Virus record (IMG/VR): IMGVR_UViG_3300036770_001413
Span: 43,546-107,545 of that record
Length of the DNA stretch: 64,000 bases
Source: a virus
Reading direction: 5' to 3' (one strand)
A program made the translations under genes and the position numbers. Below the pieces are notes generated by a model. The model was not told the origin of the DNA and made no database searches. It worked only from the letters and a program-made list of their open reading frames with translations. How positions within the stretch are numbered: the first letter of the stretch is position 1; each line of letters begins with the position of its first letter. Shown in pieces: positions 240 through 49,064 of this stretch.

Positions 240-2111
240 TTATACGTTTTGGATTACGATCCAGTCATTATTATATGATTCAACGCCATCTTCTGTCATG
301 GTTGTTGTCGAAGAATCTGTAATTGAGGAACTTTGTTTACGTCTATATAGGTCATAATTGGCTGCCGCCTGTGTAGAATTAAATGCAGTCTCATATAGGG
401 CTATATATTGATATAGGGCTGAGACTGATCCATATACAGAATAATTAAATCTAATATCATTTGATACCGCCGACCCAAATACTATGAGGACGTGGTGTAA
501 TTGTCCTGCCCTAAATATATTTGAGACATTTGTCTGTGAGGTTTTATTTACCCCATTTACATATATTGCTGAGATATTGGTTTTTGATACCGCCCCCGAA
601 TTGTGCCAAGATATATTTGAAGCGGCATAGCCATTTGTGGCAGTTGTAGAAATTAGCCCACTATCAGTTAAAGTGGCGGGGGTGTAGAAAAATTCTAAAG
701 TCTGAACTCCCTTTGTCGTAGTAATTTCAAATCCAGAATCAACTACTGTCCTTAATCCATTTCTACTATTTCTTGAAAGGATATCATATGGGAGTTTGCC
801 CAAAGTAATTCTATAATCCGATATTCCAGCATCTTCTTCAAGTGTTGTCATATAGCTATTTCCATTATAGGCATATCTGGTTTGATTATTATAGAAAAGC
901 ATATCTAGGTTAAACAGCCTAGGAATATATCTTGTTGTATCTGTAGAGGTAAATATAATTCTCAAATATATTGTTCCTGCCGACGAAAAACTATTTAATG
1001 TATATCCTGGTATCTGTTGTCCATTAATACAATTGTTATAGGTTACTCCATCTATGCTTGCCTGAACAGTAATTCCATTGTCGCCATGCCACTCAATTTT
1101 AGACGAATCAAATGTGGCGGAAGAAGGGATAGAAATAAAATCATTTATAGTAACAGTACTAGATGCTGCAGAATCCGTTTGAGTAATTTCAAGACAATCT
1201 AAAGTAAGGTTATGTGTCAAGCCAGTTGTAACTAATTCGTCCCATCCTTTGCTATAAGGATATTGGAATTTATATAATGAGGACATTTCATCATCATACA
1301 TTTCAAACAATTCTCCATTTGCTGGATCTACTATTTGAATAGCTGGCAAAGGTTGTCCTTGTGCAAAATGATATGCAATTTGATTTTGAGATAAGCCGTA
1401 TCTATATATAGCTACGCTATTTATTAAAAATACATTTGAGCTGTCAGGAGTAGGCCCAGTAATTAGATTTAAATTAGTATTTGTAAACTCAAAATTATTT
1501 AAGCTTTTTGTAGCTGCCAATTGTCCATCTATATAAATTGATGCAGAGTTAACTGAATAAACGGAGGCTACATGAAAGGATTTATTTGTAGAGGGCAATG
1601 TATATTCTACAGAATCTGTATCTAGTTTAAATACTATATTTCCTTTTTGATAAAATACTCCTACGTCTTCCGCCGAATCTCCTACTAAAGGAATTTCATC
1701 AGTTGAAGAAATTTGAGGGTGGAACCAGAACTCTATTGTAAAATCATTATCCGATGATGACGCTGTTCCAAATTGGCTAGTTGTTGCAGTAGCAGTATAG
1801 TCATTGTTAATATTATATATAATTGAGTTGGTATTTGTTATATTGGTTGCTCTACTGTTTCCCGCCACAAGTGGTATTAAATCTGGGGCGGGATCTCCAA
1901 TATAATTCCCATCATTTTCACATCCTGAATGATCATAAGCAACATCTCCATATATATTTGCATATGAAGATATGTTATCTAATACATCTTGGTATGTTGC
2001 AAATTGTGCCAAAAAAGCAGTAAAGTTATCTACTAGATCGACTGTTGTTAGATCGTCTAATGGATAATATGCTATAGGATAATCATATAGCACTGCTGCT
2101 TTATATGACAT
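240..2111 (-). CDS. minor tail/baseplate protein with LamG/concanavalin-A-like domain
   Basis: 623 aa; PIAYYPLDD start, FTIEFWF, HVASVY..IYIDGQL and VAIYRYGLS LamG-like motifs; lies at the end of the tail locus. Confidence 0.65.
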   Translation of the reverse strand: MSYKAAVLYDYPIAYYPLDDLTTVDLVDNFTAFLAQFATYQDVLDNISSYANIYGDVAYDHSGCENDGNYIGDPAPDLIPLVAGNSRATNITNTNSIIYNINNDYTATATTSQFGTASSSDNDFTIEFWFHPQISSTDEIPLVGDSAEDVGVFYQKGNIVFKLDTDSVEYTLPSTNKSFHVASVYSVNSASIYIDGQLAATKSLNNFEFTNTNLNLITGPTPDSSNVFLINSVAIYRYGLSQNQIAYHFAQGQPLPAIQIVDPANGELFEMYDDEMSSLYKFQYPYSKGWDELVTTGLTHNLTLDCLEITQTDSAASSTVTINDFISIPSSATFDSSKIEWHGDNGITVQASIDGVTYNNCINGQQIPGYTLNSFSSAGTIYLRIIFTSTDTTRYIPRLFNLDMLFYNNQTRYAYNGNSYMTTLEEDAGISDYRITLGKLPYDILSRNSRNGLRTVVDSGFEITTTKGVQTLEFFYTPATLTDSGLISTTATNGYAASNISWHNSGAVSKTNISAIYVNGVNKTSQTNVSNIFRAGQLHHVLIVFGSAVSNDIRFNYSVYGSVSALYQYIALYETAFNSTQAAANYDLYRRKQSSSITDSSTTTMTEDGVESYNNDWIVIQNV

Positions 2112-5250: not shown

Positions 5251-6306
5251 CTAAGACCTTTCGTACCAGCCTTTATCCCATAGGGTTAAAAGGCGGCGGA
5301 AGTAATTATCATACTGTGGAGCAATAGCTTCTAATGAATATTTATTCTTTGCCGTCTCATATATAGTTCTGGGATCTAATTTCTTTACATCCTCTGCCGC
5401 CCTACAAAATTCATCAAGAGTTCTGCATCTATATCCAGTAACTCCATTTATATTTGTTTCTGTAAATGCGCCCCAGTCTGTTGTAATTGTAGGAGTCCCG
5501 CAAAAATGTGCCTCTGGCACAATGTTGCCAAATGGTTCTATGTATATAGTTGGAGCAAATACTGCTATTGCGCCTCCCATTAATTTTGCACGTTCTTCTG
5601 GTCCTACCGCCCCAACAAATTCTCCATATCCATCTTGTGGACCAGCACCTGCAAGAATTAGGCGCTTACCTAAAGCTTGGCAAACCTCTTGTGCGATTCT
5701 ATATCCTTTGCGTTCAATTAGGCGGCCAATGAAAAGATAATAATCTTCCTTTTGTTCTTGAAGTGGGAACATGTGTGGTTCTAAATATCCTGGAATTACA
5801 GCATCAAAGAATTTACCATCGACGGCGGAAGCAAGATTATGCTGTGCATAAATACTATGCATCCAAGCATATGATTCAAATACTCTATACTTAGCAAATG
5901 TTCCTGGATATCCTATTCCAAATTCTACAGACATATGATTTGGGAAATAATCTGCAATTGATTTTTGGGCGTAGCCGCCAATTAAACATATAAAATCTTT
6001 TTGCTGTATTCGCTTTGATAATTCTATAATTACTTTGTTATTATATTTAACCCAATGAGACAGAGATGAATCAAATGATCCAGCTGTATAATGATTACCG
6101 TTTAGACTTTCTAATCTTTCCGTTTCGGAAATACATGGAATATGTTCATCAACGGGGGCGGAATTAAATTCGCCAGCATATAAAAATACTTCATGTCCCA
6201 TATCTTTCATCATCATGCAGAAACGTCTTACCTTTTCAGTAAATGCACATGATGTAAATTCTAAAGTTGTATTTGTATGAGGTAATGATATTACATGAAA
6301 ACGCAT
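5251..6306 (-). CDS. glycosyltransferase family 4 (GT-B)
   Basis: YYLFIGRLIERKG and EPFGNIVPEAHFCGTPTIT motifs. Confidence 0.88.
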   Translation of the reverse strand: MRFHVISLPHTNTTLEFTSCAFTEKVRRFCMMMKDMGHEVFLYAGEFNSAPVDEHIPCISETERLESLNGNHYTAGSFDSSLSHWVKYNNKVIIELSKRIQQKDFICLIGGYAQKSIADYFPNHMSVEFGIGYPGTFAKYRVFESYAWMHSIYAQHNLASAVDGKFFDAVIPGYLEPHMFPLQEQKEDYYLFIGRLIERKGYRIAQEVCQALGKRLILAGAGPQDGYGEFVGAVGPEERAKLMGGAIAVFAPTIYIEPFGNIVPEAHFCGTPTITTDWGAFTETNINGVTGYRCRTLDEFCRAAEDVKKLDPRTIYETAKNKYSLEAIAPQYDNYFRRLLTLWDKGWYERS

Positions 6307-36979: not shown

Positions 36980-37006
36980 TTTTTTTAATTCCCGCCCCAA
37001 AATATG

Positions 37007-37079
37007 CTGGATCACTAGGATTCGAACCTAGGACCTAGAAGTTAACAGCTTCCCGCTCTGCCTGCTGAGCTATGATCCA
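37007..37079 (-). tRNA. tRNA-Asn (GTT)
   Basis: acceptor TGGATCA/TGATCCA plus discriminator G, D arm TAGCTCAGCAGGCAGAGC, anticodon arm GGAAG-CTGTTAA-CTTCT, T loop GGTTCGAATCC; CCA not fully encoded. Confidence 0.92.
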
Positions 37080-37746: not shown

Positions 37747-37854
37747 TGTGTGATTCACATCACCAATGTCCGATTTGCTCACATTTGTCTGGTTGAATAT
37801 GTCAGTGGGGGGGTGTAGTATTTAATTATTAGATAAACGAAAGGAGTCAATAAA

Positions 37855-38046
37855 ATGACTACACTAAAATATGAATATACTGTAAAGAATTTTACCTGTG
37901 ATGAGTGTGGAGAATTCTCCGATGAATTATCCAATATCACTACTGATATATCAGATACCACTATTACCGCCCTATGCTGTGATACTGAGTATTGGGTCTA
38001 TGACCTAAATCAGCTAGGTTATCAGGTTGAGGAGGTTATCCGCTAA
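37855..38046 (+). CDS. small acidic Cys-containing early protein
   Basis: CDECG...LCC; AACGAAAGGAG RBS. Confidence 0.65.
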   Translation: MTTLKYEYTVKNFTCDECGEFSDELSNITTDISDTTITALCCDTEYWVYDLNQLGYQVEEVIR

Positions 38047-38156
38047 TGATAGACTCACTAACTAGAATTGACTGTAATGAGTGTAATGGTCAGGGTCTTA
38101 TATTCTGGGGCAATGACTCAGACTACGATGTTGAACCTTGCGAGTGTGTGGCGTAA
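38046..38156 (+). CDS. 36-aa Zn-finger-like peptide (not in ORF track)
   Basis: MIDSLTRIDCNECNGQGLIFWGNDSDYDVEPCECVA; GAGGAGG RBS; paralogue of 39511-39672. Confidence 0.65.
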   Translation: MIDSLTRIDCNECNGQGLIFWGNDSDYDVEPCECVA

Positions 38157-38233
38157 ATCACACCAGACACGCCCTAGATAGGCTTGAAAATGTCAGACCT
38201 ATCTGATAGCCTTACGGCATAACAATTAAATAA

Positions 38234-38289
38234 GAGAGTATGAGCCTAGCAAATAAACCGAAAGGGTGAGCCTAGCAAATAAGACTCTC
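38234..38289 (+). repeat. 16-bp direct repeat inside an inverted repeat in a 5' leader
   Basis: GAGAGT..TGAGCCTAGCAAATAA-ACCGAAAGGG-TGAGCCTAGCAAATAA..ACTCTC. Confidence 0.7.
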
Positions 38290-38311
38290 ACTAACGAAAG
38301 GAAATAAATAA

Positions 38312-38476
38312 ATGAAAATCACTTACTCAATATGGCAGGGTAGCCTAATCAAGGGCTCACGATTCACCGCCTCAAATATGAAAGAAATCGCTAAGGTTAT
38401 AGATGACCTAAACTCAACAGGTGCTAAACCTAAGTTTGAGTATTTCATCTCTCAAGTAGAACAGGATAACAAGTAA
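38312..38476 (+). CDS. hypothetical early protein (54 aa)
   Basis: AACGAAAGGAA RBS; MKITYSIWQGSLIKG... Confidence 0.65.
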   Translation: MKITYSIWQGSLIKGSRFTASNMKEIAKVIDDLNSTGAKPKFEYFISQVEQDNK

Positions 38477-38655
38477 TGACTTACGCTATGACTTGGGAGC
38501 GAGATTATCGCTCCTACAAATACGAAACTATTCAAGATAATTATCTTGATGATGACTTAGATGATGAACCGACAGACTTTACCGAAGTTGCCTTATCAGA
38601 GATTTCTCTTGATGAATTAGACGATGACGAATTAACAGAATTGGGTTTAATATAA
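38476..38655 (+). CDS. highly acidic 59-aa protein
   Basis: 20 D/E versus 3 K/R; TAATG coupling. Confidence 0.6.
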   Translation: MTYAMTWERDYRSYKYETIQDNYLDDDLDDEPTDFTEVALSEISLDELDDDELTELGLI

Positions 38656-38802
38656 ATGGATACATATAACAGAATACTAAAGGCTCAACAGGAGCGTAGA
38701 GAATTACAGGCTCTAAAGGATAAGCAAGTAGTAGAGGCTATGTTTGCTAATCATATGCGCCCTCTAAATAATAAGCACTTACTAAAGGAAATAGAGAGAT
38801 GA
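38656..38802 (+). CDS. hypothetical protein (48 aa)
   Basis: directly follows the previous stop; MDTYNRILKAQQERRE... Confidence 0.5.
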   Translation: MDTYNRILKAQQERRELQALKDKQVVEAMFANHMRPLNNKHLLKEIER

Positions 38803-38882
38803 TAAATCTTATTCATACCGCCGCCCTATTATCTTTGTGTATAGGGCTAGGCTGGGCGTTTGTGATGTTTATCACACGCTAA
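38799..38882 (+). CDS. 27-aa single-TM peptide
   Basis: MINLIHTAALLSLCIGLGWAFVMFITR; ATGA overlap. Confidence 0.4.
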   Translation: MINLIHTAALLSLCIGLGWAFVMFITR

Positions 38883-39106
38883 ATCGGCGTGTCAGCTTGA
38901 CAAGATCGGCGGGCCCCCGCACAGTTGTGCGGGCGATTTATCCCTTATGAGCATTATGTCCGATTCCCCGAAATCCTGCGACACGCCGAGAATTTTGTGA
39001 ATTTTCTCACACGACTGAGCGTCTCATATTTTGGAATTACTCGCTAGTAAGTAGAGAAATGTCGGTGGGCTTTGGTAAAATATCAGCATAAAGAAAGGAA
39101 AACTAA

Positions 39107-39319
39107 ATGAAAACTTATTCAATAGTAGATTTGCTAGTTGACCAATACTACGCCCCTACTTCTCTCCGCCGTAGATTTAATGGTGGAATTATCAATTACG
39201 CAGAAAAGCGTGAAAATGTTTATTTATCCGAAGGCTACGAGGCTTTCGCTATTCGCTACCGCCCAACAGGGTCAATTCAAGACCAATGGGCAACAGTAGC
39301 CGTAAAAGTCGCCGACTAA
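39107..39319 (+). CDS. hypothetical early protein
   Basis: own promoter (39060) and GAAAGGAA RBS. Confidence 0.65.
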   Translation: MKTYSIVDLLVDQYYAPTSLRRRFNGGIINYAEKRENVYLSEGYEAFAIRYRPTGSIQDQWATVAVKVAD

Positions 39320-39372
39320 ATGTCGGTGGCTTCCACTATAATCAGATTTATCAAAACGAAAGGAAAACTAAA

Positions 39373-39510
39373 ATGGATCTAAAAGAATTTAGAGATTTTA
39401 TTATTGCCCAGCGCTTGGCAGAAAATAAAGAAAAGCGCAACGCTAATCTCACCGCAATTTTGTCGGTGGCTAATGCTACAATTACCGAAACAACAGGAAA
39501 GGAAAACTAA
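39373..39510 (+). CDS. hypothetical early protein (start moved to 39373)
   Basis: RBS at 39355; MDLKEFRDFIIAQRL. Confidence 0.6.
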   Translation: MDLKEFRDFIIAQRLAENKEKRNANLTAILSVANATITETTGKEN

Positions 39511-39672
39511 ATGAGTAAAATGAAACGACTACTAGAGGAAATTTCTAATTGCGATACTTGCTTTGGAAATGGCTATCTATACTACGGAGATGAGGAAACT
39601 TTTGATGTTGAGCCTTGTCTATGTAATCCAGAAAGTCTTGAACACCAACTATTCGGAAAAGAGGCTGACTAA
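39511..39672 (+). CDS. 53-aa Zn-finger-like peptide (not in ORF track)
   Basis: CDTCFGNG...FDVEPCLC; promoter 39461 and GAAAGGAA RBS. Confidence 0.65.
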   Translation: MSKMKRLLEEISNCDTCFGNGYLYYGDEETFDVEPCLCNPESLEHQLFGKEAD

Positions 39673-39872
39673 TGTATAAACTATTTACTTACTATGACGG
39701 AAAATTAGAATTCACCGCTAATTTCTCAGACGCTCTTGAAGCGTTTGAGGCTTTCGCAAGATGTAAAGATGTAGGTTTTGCTATTGAAAACGCAACTTAT
39801 AATCTAGAAATGCCAACAGGCAAAATGTATACAAAAAACTTTGACAGAATAGGTTTGGTATCTCACCGATGA
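39672..39872 (+). CDS. hypothetical early protein
   Basis: translationally coupled ORF. Confidence 0.55.
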   Translation: MYKLFTYYDGKLEFTANFSDALEAFEAFARCKDVGFAIENATYNLEMPTGKMYTKNFDRIGLVSHR

Positions 39873-40060
39873 TGACTAGAAAAGACTATGTCGCTACCGC
39901 AGAAATTCTAAACTATGTTAGCGATAAAACCCACCCCGCTATTTTTTCTAAAATGGTAAATGATTTCGCAGAAATGTTTGCGAAAGATAATCCTAAATTT
40001 GATGTAAAAAGATTTCACGAAGCGAGCAATTATCGTGTTCCAAAATTTACAGCGAATTAA
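39869..40060 (+). CDS. conserved-looking small phage protein (MTRKDY...DNP.FD..RF type)
   Basis: motif pattern recalled from phage small proteins; not searched. Confidence 0.55.
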   Translation: MMTRKDYVATAEILNYVSDKTHPAIFSKMVNDFAEMFAKDNPKFDVKRFHEASNYRVPKFTAN

Positions 40061-40160
40061 AAAAGTTTTGGATTTGCGCCGTAGTAATGCGGCGCAACCA
40101 ATGCGAAATAAAAAAATTTATTCACGAAAGCGAAAGCATAAAAATAAATTTGACAATTAG
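40035..40160 (+). CDS. 41-aa basic peptide with ArfA-like Y.RK.KHK tail (not in ORF track)
   Basis: MFQNLQRIKKVLDLRRSNAAQPMRNKKIYSRKRKHKNKFDN (GTG start). Confidence 0.5.
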   Translation: MFQNLQRIKKVLDLRRSNAAQPMRNKKIYSRKRKHKNKFDN

Positions 40161-40277
40161 TTGAAATGGCCCGCAAATATGTGTGGGGGCCTGATGTGAT
40201 TTACGACACACACGGCGTGTCCCCGAAATTTTGTCAGTGTAATCTGTTATACTAGCGGCATAACGAAAGGAAAACTA

Positions 40278-40424
40278 ATGATAAAAGTTGCTTGTTTATA
40301 TTATGAGATTTGTGGCACTGCTACCTATTTTGTTGATGAGGCGGAATATGAGGTCTATGGCGATGATTGGGCATGCGCCGAATGCTTAGATACTGTTGCC
40401 GAATTCGCTGTCGGTATGTGGTGA
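40278..40424 (+). CDS. 48-aa acidic Cys-rich peptide
   Basis: promoter 40232, RBS 40262; C..Y..C...WACAEC. Confidence 0.6.
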   Translation: MIKVACLYYEICGTATYFVDEAEYEVYGDDWACAECLDTVAEFAVGMW

Positions 40425-40437
40425 TAGAATGTCCACT

Positions 40438-41157
40438 ATGAAATTGAAACGCTCTAACGATAGGAAGGTTGCTAATGCCGTATCAAAAAATGGAAAGACC
40501 CCAACAATTGCCAACACTTTTGGATTGCCTGCTGGAAAAGATTACTCCTGCCCTGGTGCCACTAGTATTTGTGAAAGTGTTTGCTATGCAGGAAAACTTG
40601 AAAAAGTCTATAAGGGAGTAAAGGCTGTGCTCCTACACAATTGGGAGCTCCTACGCAATGCAGATGAGCCTACTATGGTTGACTTAATTGAGGATATGAT
40701 TGCAGACTTTAGAAAAGATTGCGATAAGCGCAATGCAGAAAAGTTATTCCGTATTCACTGGGACGGCGATTTCTTTAGCGATACCTATGCACGGGCGTGG
40801 CAATATGTAATTACGCAAAATGCCGATATTCAATTTTGGGTTTATACTCGTGTAAAGTCTGCAGCCCTTATTCTTAAAGATATTTCTAATCTATCACTTT
40901 ACTATTCTACCGATGATGAGAATAAAGAAATTGGGCACGAATTAAAGCGTGAGAATGGTATTCGATTGGCTTATCTCGGAAAGACTTTTGCAGTCACCGA
41001 AAATGTAATGAAAGAGTTAACTGGTAAGCCTGGTGCTAAATGCCCTGAAAATGCTAAGAAAATTCCACTTATCTCTACTAATGGTTCCGCCTGCGTATCG
41101 TGTGGTCTGTGTGTTTATGGTAAAGCAGACATAAGATTTTCTGCGAGTAAAAAATGA
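40438..41157 (+). CDS. Gp88-like (radical-SAM-like Fe-S) phage protein
   Basis: SCPGATSICESVCYAG, FRIHWDGDFF, FWVYTR, C-terminal CP...CVSCGLC; leaderless start 7 nt after TAGAAT. Confidence 0.7.
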   Translation: MKLKRSNDRKVANAVSKNGKTPTIANTFGLPAGKDYSCPGATSICESVCYAGKLEKVYKGVKAVLLHNWELLRNADEPTMVDLIEDMIADFRKDCDKRNAEKLFRIHWDGDFFSDTYARAWQYVITQNADIQFWVYTRVKSAALILKDISNLSLYYSTDDENKEIGHELKRENGIRLAYLGKTFAVTENVMKELTGKPGAKCPENAKKIPLISTNGSACVSCGLCVYGKADIRFSASKK

Positions 41158-41453
41158 TGAATGCGCCATATGCAATACACGAATTGCAGCAATTAATTTG
41201 GGAGGATTCTATGGACCACTTGGCCGAATGCACGTGTAGTCTCTGTATAACACTGGATGTAATTAATGAATATGTCGGGGGCCCCGCTTGATCCCCCGCC
41301 CGCAAATGTGTGGGGGCCCAAGCATAGTTACGAGTCAAGTTAAAAACGCCCTGGATTTTGTGATTTTTATCACAAAAAATAATTAGACCTAATCTGATAA
41401 ATGTCGGTGGACTACGCTATAATTGCGACTTAACCAAACGAAAGGAAATACAA

Positions 41454-41714
41454 ATGGAAACTGCAATTGATACAACTAATTGGGTTAAATACCCTTTTAC
41501 TGTTGATGGAATTGACTTTGTGTCTTTAATAGACCCTAAAGGAAGTTTTTACCCACAACTAGAGGCTATGCCTACTCAACTGCTTAATGCTCTTAATGAG
41601 AGCGCAATTAGAGAGTTTATTGGCTCACCCGCCAATTTTTCTTTAGATGAATTACAAGGGGAATTAGATGAAATTAACCTTGGCTATTCGCAGGCTCTAA
41701 TTACCTTAGCCTAA
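41454..41714 (+). CDS. hypothetical acidic early protein
   Basis: promoter 41402, RBS 41437. Confidence 0.65.
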   Translation: METAIDTTNWVKYPFTVDGIDFVSLIDPKGSFYPQLEAMPTQLLNALNESAIREFIGSPANFSLDELQGELDEINLGYSQALITLA

Positions 41715-41769
41715 AAATGTCGGTGGGTAGGTGTATAATCTACCCACTAACAACAACGAAAGGAAACAA

Positions 41770-42042
41770 ATGTTATCAACCGCAACTGCCTTAATTAAGG
41801 CAACCGAGGAAGCAATTTTTGATGAGGAGTGTATGTCTTTTGCTCAACAATTCTGCCACCATAAAGATGAATTAACCCCTGAATACTTTGCTAAGTCTAT
41901 TTATCTTTATTCAACTATGATAGCAAGTCTAGCAATAGATAAGGCTATGAAAGTTTTATTAACTCAGGAGCAAGTAGAGGAATTATGCTCTGCTATTGCT
42001 GAATTAGAACAAATGGAAAATGAGGTGCTAAATGGGAAGTAA
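41770..42042 (+). CDS. hypothetical early protein (start moved to 41770)
   Basis: promoter 41718, RBS 41755. Confidence 0.65.
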   Translation: MLSTATALIKATEEAIFDEECMSFAQQFCHHKDELTPEYFAKSIYLYSTMIASLAIDKAMKVLLTQEQVEELCSAIAELEQMENEVLNGK

Positions 42043-42298
42043 TTTTGCTCATGACTTAGCTGATTATGACTTAGGATTAGACTTATCTACCGCTATCAAG
42101 ATACACCTAACTTCTAATCACTACCCGCCAATTCCCGTTGAAATGGTAGAGCCGTGTATAGATGCTATTGACGCATACCATAATGGCGATACGGATCAAG
42201 AAATACAAATGCCAAAAGACATAACCTATAAAGGCAGAAATACCGCCCCCGCTTGGGCTATCATAGAGCAACACCACCTAGAGGCTTGGTGCGAATAA
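42032..42298 (+). CDS. hypothetical protein
   Basis: HL.SNHYPP.P...CIDAI...HHL..W motif. Confidence 0.6.
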   Translation: MGSNFAHDLADYDLGLDLSTAIKIHLTSNHYPPIPVEMVEPCIDAIDAYHNGDTDQEIQMPKDITYKGRNTAPAWAIIEQHHLEAWCE

Positions 42299-42350
42299 AT
42301 GTCGGTGGGCTATGATAGGATAGCCTTCCAAACTAACGAAAGGAAAACAA

Positions 42351-42506
42351 ATGGGAACAACCCTAGAAATCGGACAGACCTTCACGACAGAAAAATCTGG
42401 CGTAGTAGGAACAATTAAAGCAGTAGATAACCACCCTTCAGGCGTGGCTCGTATTCTGCTTGATGTAAATGGCAAAGAACGCTGGACTAGCGTATCTGCT
42501 AAGTAA
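42351..42506 (+). CDS. 51-aa small beta protein (not in ORF track)
   Basis: promoter 42300, RBS 42335; MGTTLEIGQTFTTEKSGVVGTIKAV...RWTSV. Confidence 0.65.
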   Translation: MGTTLEIGQTFTTEKSGVVGTIKAVDNHPSGVARILLDVNGKERWTSVSAK

Positions 42507-42578
42507 TCAAATGGCAGGGCTCACAATGTCGGTGGGCTCTGCTACAATTCTCGCTCAACAACTAACGAAAGGAAAATA

Positions 42579-43001
42579 ATGGCTAGAAACGGAAAATCTA
42601 TTCAAGTCAAGATTGCTACAACTAAAGTAATCAAGGCACTTGAAACTAAATTGGCAGACCTGAAAAAAACTCAGGCTACCCAAAAAACCAATGAGGAGAA
42701 ATACTCAAAGGCGCAAGAGAAATGGGCTAAGGAAGTTGCTAAACTTGCTCTCGCTCAAATCGCAAAGGCAGAAAACCTACGAGCAAATGTTCGCTACAAT
42801 GGCGAAATAAATGTAGATTTTGATTTACCTAAAGGCTCTATTGAATTACCAAAAGAACCTGAAAAGGATTTTGAAACCTATAACGATTGGCAGTATCGGG
42901 AAATGTTTGAGGAGATAGAGAACGCTATCCGTATTCTCAAGATGACCGATGAGGAAGTAGTAAATACTTCTACCTATAACGCTATCGCTCGTTATCTCTA
43001 A
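42579..43001 (+). CDS. hypothetical early protein
   Basis: promoter 42527, RBS 42564; followed by hairpin GGGGGCTAGA/TCTAGCCCCC. Confidence 0.65.
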   Translation: MARNGKSIQVKIATTKVIKALETKLADLKKTQATQKTNEEKYSKAQEKWAKEVAKLALAQIAKAENLRANVRYNGEINVDFDLPKGSIELPKEPEKDFETYNDWQYREMFEEIENAIRILKMTDEEVVNTSTYNAIARYL

Positions 43002-43070
43002 TAGTATGGGGGCTAGACAAAATCTAGCCCCCTATGCTAAAATACTTATCCCTACTAACAAAGGAAAGAA

Positions 43071-43280
43071 ATGCTAGATGTAGAAATCTACGAAATGGAT
43101 TATTCAGTATCCCCTGGCGGTGTGAATTGCTGGGAAATGACTATTGGTAATAAATGCTATTCAGACTTCAAAACTGCTGGACAGGCTTTAGACCACTTGC
43201 TAATTATGTATCCTGACTCAGGATTTAATTTAAGTGTTGTATCACTTGCTAATTATTTCAAGGAGGATACTTATGTATAA
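43071..43280 (+). CDS. hypothetical protein
   Basis: AAAGGA RBS; sigmaA-like TAGACA-N17-TAAAAT promoter. Confidence 0.55.
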   Translation: MLDVEIYEMDYSVSPGGVNCWEMTIGNKCYSDFKTAGQALDHLLIMYPDSGFNLSVVSLANYFKEDTYV

Positions 43281-43530
43281 TCGCTATCGTGTAGAAATAT
43301 ATGACGAAAACAAATTAAATGATTTAACTCTATACTTTTCTGACGGAGTAAATAGAGAACACTTATCGGAATTAGTTTTTGCTAATATCCGCAGATTTCA
43401 AGGCAAGGTTAAAGCCTATGTCTTTGATAAGAAAAAGAAAGAAAAAGTTCTTGCTATCTTTTATCCAGAAGAAATAGTTAAGAAATATAATAACAATAGA
43501 CTAACTAAAGAAGAAATTGGTTTAGTTTAA
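43273..43530 (+). CDS. hypothetical protein (likely start MYNRYRV)
   Basis: AGGAGG RBS inside the previous gene. Confidence 0.5.
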   Translation: MYNRYRVEIYDENKLNDLTLYFSDGVNREHLSELVFANIRRFQGKVKAYVFDKKKKEKVLAIFYPEEIVKKYNNNRLTKEEIGLV

Positions 43531-43535
43531 AAGCT

Positions 43536-43590
43536 TGGGGCGGGTTTGTGTCGTGTAATCATCTAGATCCCCGCCCCATTTCCTTTTTTT
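43536..43590 (+). terminator. intrinsic terminator
   Basis: TGGGGCGGG...CCCGCCCCA followed by a T tract. Confidence 0.6.
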
Positions 43591-43609
43591 GGCCCGCATA
43601 TGTGAGGGG

Positions 43610-43639
43610 TTTTCCACAGGTTTAAGAGAGTTATCCACA
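43610..43639 (+). promoter_or_regulatory. pair of DnaA-box-like 9-mers
   Basis: TTTTCCACA (43610) and TTATCCACA (43631), 21 bp apart. Confidence 0.45.
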
Positions 43640-43749
43640 ATCCCCGAAATTTGTGAGATTGATCACAGATCAAAGATTCCCCTATCTTGTCAAATGTCAG
43701 ACCCACAGTGTATAATAACTAATTCAACTAACTATGAAAGGAAAAAACT

Positions 43750-44757
43750 ATGGCTCATAACCTAGAAACAAATGGCAATGAAGTTGCCTTTGCCCTACGT
43801 GGCACACCTGCTTGGCATAATCTTGCCAATCGCATTTTCTTACAAGATGAAAATGTATCAACTCAAATGATGTTAGATGAGGCTAAACTTTCCAATTGGA
43901 ACGTCCGCCTTTCTCCTGTCGTTGAGCATATCCCTGCTGATTGGAATGATAATTCTAATTCTCAATATGTGATTCGCACGAATCCATTTAATCAAGAAAC
44001 CGATGTTCTCTCTGTTGTCGGTTCTCGCTATCAAGTTGTCCAGAATGAAGATTTATTTGCTTTCGCAGATAATATCCTAGACGGCGATTCTCGTTGCCAA
44101 TGGGAATCTGGCGGTTCAATCAAGAATGGTAAAGTAGTCTTTGGCTCTCTTACTGTTCCACGTGAAATGGTGTTAGACCCACAAGGCGCTAATGATAAGA
44201 CAAAGTTATATCTAATTGTCTTTACATCTCACGATGGCTCTGTTGCTGTTCAGGCAGCGATTACACCTGTTCGTGTTGTATGCCAAAATACTTTGAATCT
44301 TGCTATGCGTAATGCTAAGCAATCATTCAAGATTCGTCATACTCAATCTGCTGACGGCAAGATAGCAATTGCTCGTGAAACTCTTGGTCTTACTCTTGGA
44401 TACTTTGATGAGTTTGAGAAAGAAGTTCAATCTCTATTCGCTTCCGAGATTAACGATAAGCAATTCTATGACATCGTTAAGGCTATTTATCCAAAGCCTG
44501 CCGATGACGCTTCTAAAATTGCTATCACAAAGTGGGATAACAAGATGATAACTCTTGCTGACCTTTACTTTAATTCGCCTACTAATGCGAATATCAAAGG
44601 CACAAAGTGGGGTGCTTTCAATGCGCTAACTGAGCGCCTTGATTATTTCCGCCCTACTCGTGGAAAGTCAGATTCAAAGTGGATTTCCGCTTCAGGGTTT
44701 GACCCAATTATTACCGCCGAGAAGAATAAAATTCTTCAGATTGTAAAATCGGCGTAA
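43750..44757 (+). CDS. DUF932 (TIGR03299-type phage/plasmid) protein
   Basis: MAHNLE...TPAWH.L; V.SRYQVVQNE..F.FAD; SHDGS...TPVRVVCQNTL; GTKWGAFNALTE..D. Confidence 0.82.
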   Translation: MAHNLETNGNEVAFALRGTPAWHNLANRIFLQDENVSTQMMLDEAKLSNWNVRLSPVVEHIPADWNDNSNSQYVIRTNPFNQETDVLSVVGSRYQVVQNEDLFAFADNILDGDSRCQWESGGSIKNGKVVFGSLTVPREMVLDPQGANDKTKLYLIVFTSHDGSVAVQAAITPVRVVCQNTLNLAMRNAKQSFKIRHTQSADGKIAIARETLGLTLGYFDEFEKEVQSLFASEINDKQFYDIVKAIYPKPADDASKIAITKWDNKMITLADLYFNSPTNANIKGTKWGAFNALTERLDYFRPTRGKSDSKWISASGFDPIITAEKNKILQIVKSA

Positions 44758-44925
44758 TCTATAAGGGCCCCGCAAGGGGCCCTGCAATTCCCCCAGGATC
44801 TTGCAGCTAATCGCCCGCAAGCCTGAAATCCAAAAAAGATTGTTACGACAAGGGGACGGAACCCCTGGATTTTGTCAGTCGGGTCCGCTATAATACTCCC
44901 CATGACAACAAACGAAAGGAATACA

Positions 44926-45381
44926 ATGGAACACGTATCAATAGATGCATATAACCCACATGCGTTTATTACTCTCCGTAAAATTAATCCAGAGAGCAAT
45001 GACAGTATGTTTATTATGCACAAAGCAACTGAACTCGAGGAAACTCTAGATAGAATTAAGAATCTAGAAAAACTAGTCGAGATTACTCAGAACCAGATTG
45101 GCCAAGTTCTTGGCAATATGACTGCAGATGGCTGGTATAGTTCGAGCACAGATAAATCAGAGGTATTGTCAGACCTATGTGATATCTTTGACCATGAACC
45201 AAAACAAGAAATCAGAATCACAGGAACTATGACATTCGAACTACGCTACGATTGTCCACTTGACGAAGTCGAAGATTTTGACGCTCGTTATTTTGCACAG
45301 GACAACTTGTCTGTTGACTCATATAACGGCAATGTTATTGTCGAATCATTCGATATCGAAGATGCGGATGTGGATTGGTAA
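44926..45381 (+). CDS. acidic hypothetical protein (start moved to 44926)
   Basis: promoter 44873, RBS 44911. Confidence 0.6.
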   Translation: MEHVSIDAYNPHAFITLRKINPESNDSMFIMHKATELEETLDRIKNLEKLVEITQNQIGQVLGNMTADGWYSSSTDKSEVLSDLCDIFDHEPKQEIRITGTMTFELRYDCPLDEVEDFDARYFAQDNLSVDSYNGNVIVESFDIEDADVDW

Positions 45382-45590
45382 TGTATTATCAATTACAAGC
45401 ACCTGATAGGCTATCTCTTGAGATGGCCTATTGGGAAGCACAAATTGCTGGATTAGACCCAACTTGGATTGGCGGTAATGTCATGGACATTGGCACAGGA
45501 CAAATTGAAAAGGTTTCAGCCTTGATTTCTAAGCATAACTTAGATATACTAGTTGAAACAGATTATCAGCCAACAGGTTACAGGAGGTAG
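45375..45590 (+). CDS. hypothetical protein
   Basis: coupled ORF. Confidence 0.5.
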   Translation: MVMYYQLQAPDRLSLEMAYWEAQIAGLDPTWIGGNVMDIGTGQIEKVSALISKHNLDILVETDYQPTGYRR

Positions 45591-45591
45591 C

Positions 45592-45750
45592 ATGGACTAC
45601 AAAGAAGGCTTTCAAGATGGCGTTCAATTTACTCGTGAGGTAGTTATCGCCAATATTCGTAAATGGGCGGAATCCCATGACGAAGGACATGTATTAGATT
45701 GGGTAGCAGATAGAATAGAATTTGGGACATTAGATAATGACCTCGGATGA
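45592..45750 (+). CDS. hypothetical protein (likely start MDYKEGF)
   Basis: AGGAGG RBS. Confidence 0.5.
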   Translation: MDYKEGFQDGVQFTREVVIANIRKWAESHDEGHVLDWVADRIEFGTLDNDLG

Positions 45751-45952
45751 TATAACTAAACCAATCTATTGTGACCGTTGCCCTACCTCCCGTGCTGCTT
45801 ATTTAGTTAAAATACTAAATGGGGAATTAGCTTTTTGTAACCACCATTACAGAAGGCACAAAGAGGCCCTTGACAAGATGGCCTATGAAATTATAGAATT
45901 AAACCGTAAAGAAAAAACACCTCAACTAGAAAAGGAAGAAATAAATGGGTAA
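45737..45952 (+). CDS. small Zn-binding protein (CDRC...FCNHH)
   Basis: motif. Confidence 0.55.
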   Translation: MTSDDITKPIYCDRCPTSRAAYLVKILNGELAFCNHHYRRHKEALDKMAYEIIELNRKEKTPQLEKEEING

Positions 45953-46352
45953 TAGAGCGAACTTCGTATTCGTAGACGGAGCAGGCGATTCAATCGTGCT
46001 GTATGGGCACTGGGCTGGACATCAAATGCTAGGCAAACTAGCGGACGCTGTCATTGCCGCCAGGCCTCGATGGAACGATGAATCATATGCAACACGTATC
46101 GCAATCAGTCAACTAATTGGAGACCAATGGAACATGGAAACTGGATGGGGTCTGCAGATTAATTCAATTAGCGATAATGAGCATAAGATTGCCGTCATCA
46201 ATTGGAAAGAGCGGACGTTCAGTCTTCACGCAGAGGACGACCATCGCAACTTAGACAACAAGGTTCTAGGAATGAAGAACGAGGCTATATTCACTATGGA
46301 CCTCGAAGCATTCTGTGAGAAATACGCATTGGATGGATTGTTAGCCGTTTAA
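45945..46352 (+). CDS. hypothetical protein of the MG.RA...Y.HW.G phage type
   Basis: MGNRANF...VLYGHWAG. Confidence 0.6.
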   Translation: MGNRANFVFVDGAGDSIVLYGHWAGHQMLGKLADAVIAARPRWNDESYATRIAISQLIGDQWNMETGWGLQINSISDNEHKIAVINWKERTFSLHAEDDHRNLDNKVLGMKNEAIFTMDLEAFCEKYALDGLLAV

Positions 46353-46370
46353 ATATGGTATAATAATTAT

Positions 46371-46505
46371 CCATGGCAAGGTGCCGCTATTAGCGATATC
46401 CGCAAGTGGCTAAGTAATGCAGCTTTTACTTAATTCCTTTCGTTGCAGCTAGCAGCCTTGTTTGTTTATTGATCTAGATCCCCCAGAAATGGGGGATTTA
46501 TTTTT
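46371..46505 (+). ncRNA. candidate anti-RBS small RNA
   Basis: TGG-TATAAT at 46356-46364; closing stem GGCAAGG/CCTTGTT; hairpins CGCTA-T-TAGCG and TAAGTAA/TTACTTA; ATTCCTTTCGTTG at 46433-46445; terminator GATCCCCCA-GAAA-TGGGGGATT plus T-rich tail. Confidence 0.6.
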
Positions 46506-46636
46506 GCCCGCAGAACCTGAGAGTAAAATTAGCTCTTTACGTAATCTAATGTATTTTTCCCAGAATTGGGGTATATTGCCAAATGTCAGTGGGGTAATAT
46601 ATAATTGGACCATTCAACCAACGAAAGGAATATACT

Positions 46637-47404
46637 ATGCCTAACTGGGTATATAATGGTCTTACAATTGAAGGCAATCCTGAATTAGTAAATGACCTTG
46701 TAAAACAACTTAATAAGCCATTTGTCATGTTACATGATAATTGGAATCCTACATCTGGAAAAATGGAAGTAGTTCAAACTACATATCCTAATCCTATATT
46801 TGCATTCTATAATATCTATAATCATAGACAAGCAGGTATATCTGATAAGGACTATCTTGCACAACCGCCACGAGATATGCCCATTGAAGAACAAATGCTA
46901 TTTCAGACAAATGATTGGTATTCATTTAATGTTCGTGAATGGGGCACAAAGTGGGATGTTGCTGTATCTGAAAATAAAGAATATGCAGATACATATATAG
47001 AGGGTCCTACTGAGAATGGAGAGAATCTAGTAGTTTATTATAATTTTAATACTGCATGGTCTCCGCCTATGCCTGCCATTTCTAAACTATCTGCACAATA
47101 TCCTAGTTTATTGTTTACTATGTCCTATGAGGAAGAAACAGGTTGGGGTGGGGAATGCGAGTTCCTCCGTGGAGAAATGATTTCTGAATCTGATTATAGT
47201 AATAAATGCCGTGATTGTGAATCAGAAAATACATTAGATTATTGTGAGAATGATTGTGGCGAGATATGTTCATCTTGTAATTGGATGGGTGAGGCTGATT
47301 TAGAGGCGGTAGCAGAATGTCAGACCCATAAGATATACTTGGATTCCGAGCATGTCCCTGATTATAGAAAGGAAGCACTAGAAAATGCAACACGGAGCAT
47401 TTGA
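46637..47404 (+). CDS. DUF1281/YubB ferredoxin-like protein with C-terminal Cys cluster
   Basis: MPNWVYNGLTIEG, WYSFNVREWGTKWDV, FNTAWSPP, YEEETG. Confidence 0.78.
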   Translation: MPNWVYNGLTIEGNPELVNDLVKQLNKPFVMLHDNWNPTSGKMEVVQTTYPNPIFAFYNIYNHRQAGISDKDYLAQPPRDMPIEEQMLFQTNDWYSFNVREWGTKWDVAVSENKEYADTYIEGPTENGENLVVYYNFNTAWSPPMPAISKLSAQYPSLLFTMSYEEETGWGGECEFLRGEMISESDYSNKCRDCESENTLDYCENDCGEICSSCNWMGEADLEAVAECQTHKIYLDSEHVPDYRKEALENATRSI

Positions 47405-47612
47405 TGATGTCGATTTAATGGTAAAAGACGCAATATTCTCAGATATTGCTGACCAATTACTAGAAGACTGGATTAATAACTTATTAGATGAGGGTCAATA
47501 TTTTGCAGATTTGCAAGTTGCCTCTATGTCTGGTGACCCATTTTTACAGGATAAATTTAATAAGTTCTATAATTTAACTCCTGAACACAATGATTACTTT
47601 GAGGTGGAATAA
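47385..47612 (+). CDS. acidic hypothetical protein
   Basis: GAAAGGA RBS. Confidence 0.5.
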   Translation: MQHGAFDDVDLMVKDAIFSDIADQLLEDWINNLLDEGQYFADLQVASMSGDPFLQDKFNKFYNLTPEHNDYFEVE

Positions 47613-47830
47613 TGGAATCTGAATATATTAATAGGAAGACACAGTTAACTACTTATCTTCAATTACATATAATGTCTTTGAATGAGGACTTAGTTCAGAT
47701 ATCTAAGCATATGGATTCCTTGGACCCCGCCTCAAAAGATTATGCTGAATTAGATATTGAGCATACCTATACAAGCGGCCAAGTTTCTGCTACAATGCAC
47801 ATCCTTGAATATGTAGAGGAGATAATGTGA
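47612..47830 (+). CDS. hypothetical protein
   Basis: TAATG coupling. Confidence 0.55.
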   Translation: MESEYINRKTQLTTYLQLHIMSLNEDLVQISKHMDSLDPASKDYAELDIEHTYTSGQVSATMHILEYVEEIM

Positions 47831-48099
47831 ACACATTAGAACTGGAACCACACCTGCAGAAGCAGGTTGACGCTGGGTCCTCTGGGACTGATATCTTGCA
47901 CGGGCATTTAAAGGTGCTCATGTTGGACGCAGAGCGTGAATTGGAGGAAGCACAACGCATAGAGGATGAAACAGAAGAAGCAATGGATTCCATGGAGCGG
48001 AAGTATTGGGAAGGCCAATTAGACGCTCTTACATATGTCTACCAAATGACATATGCATTAGCATTTGCAATCGATGAAAGGACAAAGAAGAATGGATAG
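47827..48099 (+). CDS. hypothetical protein
   Basis: DSMERKYWEGQLDAL helical motif. Confidence 0.55.
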   Translation: MNTLELEPHLQKQVDAGSSGTDILHGHLKVLMLDAERELEEAQRIEDETEEAMDSMERKYWEGQLDALTYVYQMTYALAFAIDERTKKNG

Positions 48100-48496
48100 A
48101 GTTCATATAGAATCATTAGATGTGCTCAAAGCAAAAGAGCAATTAGATCTACAGGAGGCAACACGTAGAGATGATGTTTATAATCAACTAAATGAGATTA
48201 TAGATAAATTAGAGAAGATTCCTGTCTTCCCGTCATTAATGTGGGTATGGTCCTTTGACGTTATCAGAGAGATATTTGAGAACTATCAGATGAAGGACCT
48301 TGCTGTAAATGATTATGTTGATGAGGCTGTGCCTGAAGGCATAACATTAAAACAAATCTTTGATAAGTTCTGGGATGATGTAGACGGGTTCGGTCTTAGC
48401 ATGGATTCGGGCGGGGACATCATAGAAGAGACAATCAGAGATTGGATGAGAGATAACAATTTCCTAGTATCCCTGGAGGAGGAGTCAGATGAATAA
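48092..48496 (+). CDS. acidic hypothetical protein (likely start MDRVHIE)
   Basis: GAAAGGA upstream. Confidence 0.5.
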   Translation: MDRVHIESLDVLKAKEQLDLQEATRRDDVYNQLNEIIDKLEKIPVFPSLMWVWSFDVIREIFENYQMKDLAVNDYVDEAVPEGITLKQIFDKFWDDVDGFGLSMDSGGDIIEETIRDWMRDNNFLVSLEEESDE

Positions 48497-48740
48497 ATAT
48501 AAAGTATTTGGAGATAAGGTAGTTGACTACTATATTAATGTAGAAGCAACTTCTGCGGAGGAGGCATGGGACATTGCCTCCAATGCAGCAACGACTGATT
48601 GGATCCAAATGGAAACAGATAACACCATTCAGGTTCATTTTGTAGATAATGAGCTTGAAGAAGATACATCTAATCTATTAGAAGATGGATATCCGAATAT
48701 AAATAACGATATTATCATATCGGACAAATCGGACATTTAG
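48489..48740 (+). CDS. acidic hypothetical protein
   Basis: VEATSAEEAWDIA motif; GGAGGAG RBS. Confidence 0.55.
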   Translation: MNKYKVFGDKVVDYYINVEATSAEEAWDIASNAATTDWIQMETDNTIQVHFVDNELEEDTSNLLEDGYPNINNDIIISDKSDI

Positions 48741-48843
48741 TACTAAGCTGTGTGCAACGGGCACAAAGCTACGGTTACGGGGTATTTACAAATTCCCTGG
48801 AATCTGATAAAATATAACACTATCATAGAAAGGATAGACAACA

Positions 48844-48990
48844 ATGGCAACAAAGCGTGAATATCTAGTATCAAAGGGAATTACTGTTGGCCGCCGTGGC
48901 CGATTCTCTGCAGCTGCTAAGCAGGCTTTGTCTGAGGCGGAAAAGAATGGAATTAAGTTCACCGCTGAAGTCAAACAAGCAAAGAACTAA
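48844..48990 (+). CDS. Lsr2 DNA-binding-domain-like peptide (48 aa, not in ORF track)
   Basis: MATKREYLVSKGITVGRRGRFSAAAKQALSEAEKNG...; TTTACA-N17-TAAAAT promoter, GAAAGGA RBS, downstream hairpin. Confidence 0.65.
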   Translation: MATKREYLVSKGITVGRRGRFSAAAKQALSEAEKNGIKFTAEVKQAKN

Positions 48991-49064
48991 ATAGATCAGA
49001 TCCAAAGGGGCTGGCGCAAGTCAGCCCCTTATGATATAATCGAGGGTTCAAAGAGAGGCGGAAC

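Follow-up and report, generated by a model that had tools for sequence, protein, structure and literature searches.

Organization of the locus

The window analysed here is a 64,000-nt stretch (bases 43546–107545) of a 107,545-bp IMG/VR virus record that has direct terminal repeats and a G+C content of 38%. A sequence-only reading of this stretch had drawn attention to the intergenic region 46353–46636, where it placed a candidate small RNA with its own promoter, a multi-stem fold and a terminator, and with an apparently unpaired segment that is the reverse complement of the ribosome-binding site (RBS) of the early genes. The features on which that proposal was built (TGGTATAAT at 46356–46364, ATTCCTTTCGTTG at 46433–46445, the fold and the terminator at 46475–46505) are all present, and the region can be described as an extended −10 element, a core that folds, and a terminator formed by a GC hairpin with a T run. 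Our annotation of the locus and of its predicted targets, in window coordinates, is as follows.

37836–42574, + strand: eight more predicted target leaders, at 37836, 38293, 39355, 40262, 41437, 41755, 42335 and 42564, each 5–8 nt before an ATG
44911–44921, + strand: predicted target, the leader/RBS of the operon whose last elements are the 135-aa gene and the RNA (motif match)
45945–46352, + strand: 135-aa gene directly 5′ of the RNA (synteny)
46356–46364, + strand: extended −10 TGG-TATAAT (TGGTATAAT) of the candidate small RNA (from sequence; overlaps the end of the upstream gene)
46376–46381, + strand: P1 5′ strand GCAAGG, with its partner at 46456–46461 (compensatory changes in four of six pairs)
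46383–46410, + strand: P2 hairpin, GCCGCU (46383–46388) with AGUGGC (46405–46410), tip variable (99.6–100% of cells paired; GC, CG, AU and UA interchange)
46411–46418, + strand: unpaired junction UAAGUAAU, with YUAARUAAnGC as the consensus of the family (hardly any variation in alignments A2 and A4)
46419–46453, + strand: P3 hairpin, GCAGC (46419–46423) with GCU-A-GC (46448–46453), and a 24-nt loop at 46424–46447 (covariation)
46433–46445, + strand: predicted seed AUUCCUUUCGUUG, with the invariant core CUUUCGUU at 46437–46444 (exact reverse complement of the leader motif; mostly unpaired)
46456–46461, + strand: P1 3′ strand CCUUGU (covariation)
46475–46505, + strand: intrinsic terminator, an 11-bp stem (46475–46500) with a GC-rich core and then a T run (stem prediction and conservation)
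46619–46631, + strand: predicted target, the leader/RBS of the DUF1281_C gene, 13/13 complementary (duplex −18.7 kcal/mol)

Transcription of the small RNA would start at about 46371. With a promoter and an intrinsic terminator of its own, the candidate has the sequence features of an independent unit, and the whole unit folds at −44.2 kcal/mol (z = −3.3). The multi-stem character of the fold is borne out, with one correction: the third stem of the single-sequence minimum free energy structure (UGCAGC/GUUGCA) is not the conserved one. The covariation-supported P3 instead pairs 46419–46423 with 46448–46453 and thereby puts the seed in the 24-nt hairpin loop. The seed is not buried in a stem; across 33 full-length RNAs its mean unpaired probability is 0.67, compared with 0.40 for the rest of the RNA.

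The leader motif AACGAAAGGAA occurs exactly on the + strand at all of the target leaders listed above (at 46620 in the last of them) apart from 37836, where the match is 10 nt, and the 13/13 match between the seed and 46619–46631 is real. There are 14 matches with at most one mismatch, where 1.28 are expected, and none of 100 shuffles reached 14. No copy of the 10-mer falls outside this 9-kb region anywhere in the 107,545-bp genome, and a single exact minus-strand copy exists, at 46434–46444. We considered whether this copy marks a minus-strand RBS, which the sequence-only reading had also discounted, or a small ORF, and rejected both: in this orientation the motif runs into TTAAGTAAAAGCTGC, which offers no ATG, GTG or TTG at RBS distance, and there is no promoter upstream.

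Conservation and covariation of the RNA

Relatives of the locus were gathered from IMG/VR by way of the two flanking genes, and the RNA unit is present in most of these 106 loci at 80–95% nucleotide identity (blastn, nhmmer). A covariance model (R1) built from 14 members finds exactly one copy per locus in 53 loci and likewise in 99–100 further loci obtained by pattern scan (IMG/VR, at least 120 matches). The family spans at least 120 IMG/VR contigs, and each genome has a single copy. The order of elements in the alignments is the −10, P1 (xxxxGG/CCxxxx), P2 (GCnnCU/AGnnGC), YUAARUAAnGC, P3 (GC-AGN/N′CU-A-GC), a linker and the terminator; most members carry an extra 5′ hairpin between the −10 and P1, which this phage lacks. 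About 40 of 50 relatives keep the −10, a TGnTATAAT of non-PafBC type, in a constant place, and about seven have no recognizable −10. The GC hairpin and T run of the terminator are kept in all aligned relatives although their sequence changes.

Folding of the unit and covariation analysis across relatives, in which the seed should co-vary with the RBS motif, had been suggested as checks. For the helices the outcome is strong. In a first set of 47 distinct sequences, 97.3% of pair cells are standard pairs, compared with 77.1% after shuffling, and 10 of 17 pairs show compensatory changes (155 double-change cells). In a second set 96.0% of cells are paired, with 230 double-change cells. Slid controls give 26–50%. 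All three variable pairs of P3 co-vary (AGC/GCU, AGU/ACU, AGG/CCU, GUC/GAC and others). As judged from these alignments, the core is a three-helix junction with strong covariation. For the seed and the RBS motif, no clear co-variation is seen outside an invariant 8-nt core. In each of the 51 true model matches this core, CUUUCGUU, occupies the loop of P3; the seed is conserved in relatives as well as accessible. An alternative hairpin, UAAGUAAA/UUUACUUA, can be drawn in group A only and was rejected, being broken without compensation in L052/L057 and in L033/L036/L038.

Three further segments, GGUGC, GCAGCC and YUAARUAAnGC, are conserved and are not explained by pairing, and the RNA may therefore do more than the loop suggests, or something else. 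A search for a complement to the junction sequence YUAARUAA in the phage early regions found no site.

Comparison with known RNAs indicates that this is a new family, absent from Rfam 15. The locus falls below the gathering threshold there, and scans of the window and of five relatives return only tRNA. A cmscan of 46300–46560 at E values up to 10 gives only weak rseX, Phe_leader, LLnc147, RAGATH-25 and NsiR1 matches and no C4, and blastn of the locus against 50,697 phage records (cultured relatives) gives no match. ARAGORN predicts no tRNA or tmRNA at the locus; its sole prediction is a minus-strand tRNA-Asn (37006–37079), which borders the early region. We also note that relatives L008, L066, L069, L074 and L030 have a tRNA gene at about 770–1650 (+), some 1.8–2.7 kb upstream of the RNA and on the same strand.

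Leaders and promoters of the early operons

The AACGAAAGGAA motif had been described as the shared RBS of the early genes. This is correct for promoter-proximal early genes, which are the only genes that the motif heads, and not for every early gene: internal operon genes have other Shine–Dalgarno sequences (GAGGAGG, CAGGAGG, or GAAAGGA without the AAC). Nearly all of the motif leaders follow a promoter of the form TGTCRG(TGG)-N-TAnAAT; the sequence-only reading supposed this gene set to be PafBC-driven. The distance from the −10 to the motif is variable, at 8–16 nt, which places the leader element only a few nucleotides from the predicted start of the mRNA. The leader at 38293 is the sole predicted target that has no TGTCRG..TAnAAT promoter, none being found within 90 nt upstream. 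Just upstream of this RBS, at 38242–38282 (+), is a direct repeat with two copies of GAGCCTAGCAAATAA flanking ACCGAAAGGGT, and a similar sequence is found in the relative G006. The target genes code for small proteins without known families.

Predicted seed–leader duplexes in this phage are 11–13 bp long, with energies of −15 to −19 kcal/mol. By sequence and predicted accessibility, then, the RNA has a conserved, accessible seed that is complementary to the translation starts of several mRNAs.

The sequence GCCCGCA recurs about 60–105 nt upstream of TGTCRG-type promoters (40168, 41297, 43591, 44812 and 46505 on the + strand, 38928 on the − strand), and these copies often sit just past a terminator or a stop codon. 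The copy at the RNA locus belongs to a conserved sequence 3′ of the terminator, TTGCCCGCA, found in nearly all relatives, which we considered as a part of the RNA and rejected because GCCCGCA is also seen ahead of other promoter modules. The sequence probably serves such modules as an upstream element, here the next module after the terminator, and is not a part of the RNA.

Seed and leader motif in related genomes

The large relatives G001–G005 each have a cluster of 7–14 AACGAAAG leaders, all on one strand within about 10 kb, and exactly one copy on the opposite strand, which is the loop of the RNA. G004 is 47% complete and is counted apart from the genomes that are at least 90% complete. 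Among the latter, seven (this phage, G001, G002, G003, G005, G006 and G015) each have 7–14 leaders and one loop-presented antisense copy. Six related complete genomes (G009–G014), with at most three copies of the motif each, give no R1 match. Seed and leader motif are jointly present or jointly absent in these 13 complete or nearly complete genomes, a pattern that could reflect a single evolutionary event.

Two of the genomes without the RNA are informative about the leader itself. G009 (L242) and G010 (L243) keep TGTCRGTGG-N-TAnAAT promoters, and their leaders are AAAGAAAGG or ACAGAAAGAAGG, which fit the 16S 3′ tail, have no AACG and are accompanied by no antisense RNA. Copies of CTTTCGTT in these two genomes were set aside as chance matches, because they lie inside ORFs and have no hairpin. 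The suggestion that the AACG bases 5′ of the Shine–Dalgarno sequence are tied to the RNA is supported by this sample, in which the relatives without the RNA are also without the AACGAAAG cluster.

The bases flanking the core were surveyed in 159 loci, with 790 leaders, and their co-variation is weak. A C in the RNA 5′ of the core is accompanied by a leader G in 93% of cases; a U there is accompanied by G (71%) or A (27%), and can pair with either. RNAs of group D have an A at this flank, for which the leader offers no partner, and at the 3′ flank there is a mild trend only. Cognate duplexes score best in group B and marginally so in group C, and not in groups A or D. Because the core 8-mers are invariant on both sides, the core can have no true compensatory change.

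The way in which the seed is presented varies among relatives. In L041 (3404–3492) a 9-bp GC hairpin replaces the junction; its 15-nt loop is UUUCCUUUCGUUCUC and the terminator comes next. G006 has no canonical RNA, and carries ten sense copies and one antisense copy of the motif. The antisense copy forms the loop of a 14-bp GC hairpin in the early region, 3 kb from the homologue of the 135-aa gene, while the junction RNA that adjoins this homologue carries UCCUUUC in the tip loop of P2. The places of these variant presentations also include L244:5250-5382 (−) and L053/L054 around position 5344.

The 135-aa gene next to the RNA

Among the matches listed, 117 of 120 pattern-derived loci have the 135-aa gene directly upstream of the RNA and in the same orientation, whereas the DUF1281_C gene changes position between loci. 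The 135-aa protein is 70–89% identical across relatives, with H22, W23, D77, N78, E79, H80 and K81 invariant, and its AF2 model is confident (pLDDT 85). Pfam assigns it to no family (the only match is a sub-threshold RES, E = 0.029), PHROGs places it in an unnamed family and the Atlas gives only unnamed viral clusters. Foldseek against the PDB finds no fold match at E values up to 0.001, and the best Z score in a wide VIA-align search is 3.7.

There is no terminator between the 135-aa gene and the RNA, so the RNA may have a second source, as the 3′ terminus of operon transcripts from the promoter at 44873. This operon bears the target motif in its own leader (44911). The 135-aa gene may be co-transcribed with the RNA or be its partner.

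Metatranscriptomes and host

Parts of 43000–49000 are represented in twenty metatranscriptome runs, four of which were compared with the locus as assembled contigs of depth 2–10. Among these low-depth contigs, one 151-nt contig of identical sequence (46269–46419) spans the 135-aa gene's stop codon together with the predicted start of the RNA, and the bin 46417–46617 is almost empty. The 151-nt contig fits read-through from the upstream operon or DNA carry-over.

The phages of this family are uncultured and come from freshwater. A pattern scan of GTDB gave just three true matches, all on 3-kb MAG contigs with inconsistent taxonomy. The relatives of the DUF932 gene, the GP88 family and the promoter type together point to an actinobacterial host.

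A model for the RNA, and alternatives

The original observation, an antisense copy of the leader motif within a structured intergenic unit, is confirmed, and the interpretation placed on it is partly supported, the support being comparative. We consider it probable, though well short of certain, that the locus specifies an anti-leader RNA, which acts in trans to block the translation of every early operon. In this model the locus encodes a structured RNA of about 133 nt, with a three-helix junction followed by a terminator, expressed from its own extended −10 and probably supplied as well by the 3′ end of transcripts of the early operon upstream. The P3 loop would expose CUUUCGUU, extended in this phage to AUUCCUUUCGUUG, and this seed would pair in trans with AACGAAAG(GAA), which makes up most of the roughly 20–25-nt leader of every promoter-proximal early gene. 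Because the duplex would cover the Shine–Dalgarno sequence GAAAGGA, the 30S subunit should be excluded, and pairing in the leader may also leave the early mRNA open to degradation. With the build-up of the stable RNA, all genes of the early set would be silenced at the same time. We infer from the sequence comparisons that the RNA is transcribed and pairs in vivo, that the sign of its effect is repression, and that its timing is as just outlined. The model accounts for the fixed AACG bases that lie outside the Shine–Dalgarno sequence in these leaders.

It is also conceivable that the RNA mainly binds or scaffolds a protein, either the 135-aa protein or a host factor, with the CUUUCGUU loop as the protein site and the leader complementarity secondary or guiding. 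The strict synteny with the 135-aa gene (117/120 among the matches listed), the invariant His, Asp, Glu, His and Lys of a protein without a known fold, and the three invariant RNA segments that pairing with phage RNA leaves unexplained would all fit such a role. We nevertheless regard it as unlikely. The junction scaffold is replaced or moved in L041 and G006 with the seed still in a loop, the exact antisense copy in G006 is 3 kb away from the 135-aa homologue, and an invariant 8-mer would be the exact complement of the leader 8-mer by chance only about once in 65,000 per register. A bolder combination of the two ideas, in our estimate an improbable one, would make the RNA the guide subunit of a phage ribonucleoprotein in which the 135-aa protein (invariant His22, Asp77, Glu79, His80 and Lys81) cuts or silences every early mRNA at its AACGAAAG leader. 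If true, the complex would do with an RNA guide what RegB does in T4, and would do so in a phylum that, to our knowledge and given an actinobacterial host, has no Hfq. We likewise give little credence to a cis role, in which the RNA would be a 3′ UTR that stabilizes or terminates the upstream operon, or an anti-RBS element that pairs with the 44911 leader or, after read-through, with the 46619 RBS. The continuous passage from the 135-aa gene into the RNA, the relatives without a −10 and the fact that the best match in this phage is the next downstream RBS (13/13) are what such a role would predict. However, a strong terminator and a separate promoter (46584–46605) stand between the seed and the next gene, and among relatives an upstream leader often gives the best match, while the downstream gene varies by group. 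A purely structural 3′ UTR would also need no invariant loop sequence, and a cis element gives no reason for the leader motif to be maintained on 7–14 separate operons.

Other possibilities accept the pairing or the sequence match and change its consequence. The RNA could protect early mRNA 5′ ends from 5′-end-dependent RNases, as the position of the site within a few nucleotides of the predicted 5′ end might suggest, but the duplex covers the Shine–Dalgarno sequence and protection without a block to translation is unlikely. Alternatively, UCCUUUC could mimic the 16S tail and soak up host Shine–Dalgarno sequences. The actinobacterial 16S 3′ tail, CCUCCUUUCU, includes UCCUUUC as the part that pairs with GAAAGGA, and some members of the family have GGUGCGGCU, which we presume is also found beside the 16S 3′ tail. 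Groups C and D, in contrast, have lost the UCC and kept CUUUCGUU, whose CGUU part fits the phage leader and not Shine–Dalgarno sequences in general. Taken together, protection and mimicry strike us as rather doubtful. Finally, the antisense copy might have no function, as a chance match or as the remnant of an inverted promoter–leader cassette. Recombination could occur between such cassettes, of which the region has many copies, yet the similarity to a cassette stops at 13 nt, there is no minus-strand promoter and the element is conserved with covariation across at least 120 contigs, which makes this explanation hardly credible.

Comparison with known systems

By analogy, the closest known system in mechanism to the proposed anti-leader RNA is c4 of phages P1 and P7. 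The c4 RNA controls a single transcript, icd-ant, and has an immunity function in temperate enterobacterial phages. The candidate described here differs in having 7–14 predicted targets, the leaders of all early operons, in belonging to phages of about 110 kb with actinophage gene relatives, and in showing no match of sequence or structure (no Rfam C4 match at E values up to 10). The c4 RNA is described as a trans-acting structured phage RNA whose loop sequences pair around the RBS and block translation (PMC12197685). The likeness lies in a phage-encoded, structured RNA that presents an anti-RBS sequence in a loop, trans action being a prediction for the candidate. The sar RNA of P22 and the OOP RNA of lambda are likewise small phage RNAs that occlude a translation start, but each is made from the antisense strand of its single target and is fully complementary to it, whereas the candidate is encoded apart from its predicted targets and has just an 8–13-nt seed in common with them.

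Two systems resemble the candidate more in outcome than in mechanism. T4 RegB is an early phage product that inactivates many early mRNAs through a Shine–Dalgarno motif, its own transcript included (PMC3014915). The same would hold for the candidate, for which we propose that many early mRNAs, among them its own operon transcript, are hit through a short motif in the Shine–Dalgarno region; RegB, however, is a protein nuclease that cuts GGAG, whereas the agent here would be an RNA that recognizes its targets by base pairing. Polyomavirus microRNAs turn down the early mRNAs of the virus that encodes them (PMC8055838). They are similar in being viral small RNAs directed against the virus's own early genes, as predicted for the candidate, but they are eukaryotic, RISC-dependent, act on one early transcript and are of unrelated origin.

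Our literature search found no mention of the motif in this context. The RBS-blocking phage small RNAs known to us act on one transcript each, and most of them belong to temperate phages of enterobacteria. In the present case a single conserved RNA appears to be matched to a leader that is common to a whole temporal class of operons. If the anti-leader model is true, this would be an RNA-based switch for early shut-off and a multi-target form of phage antisense control.
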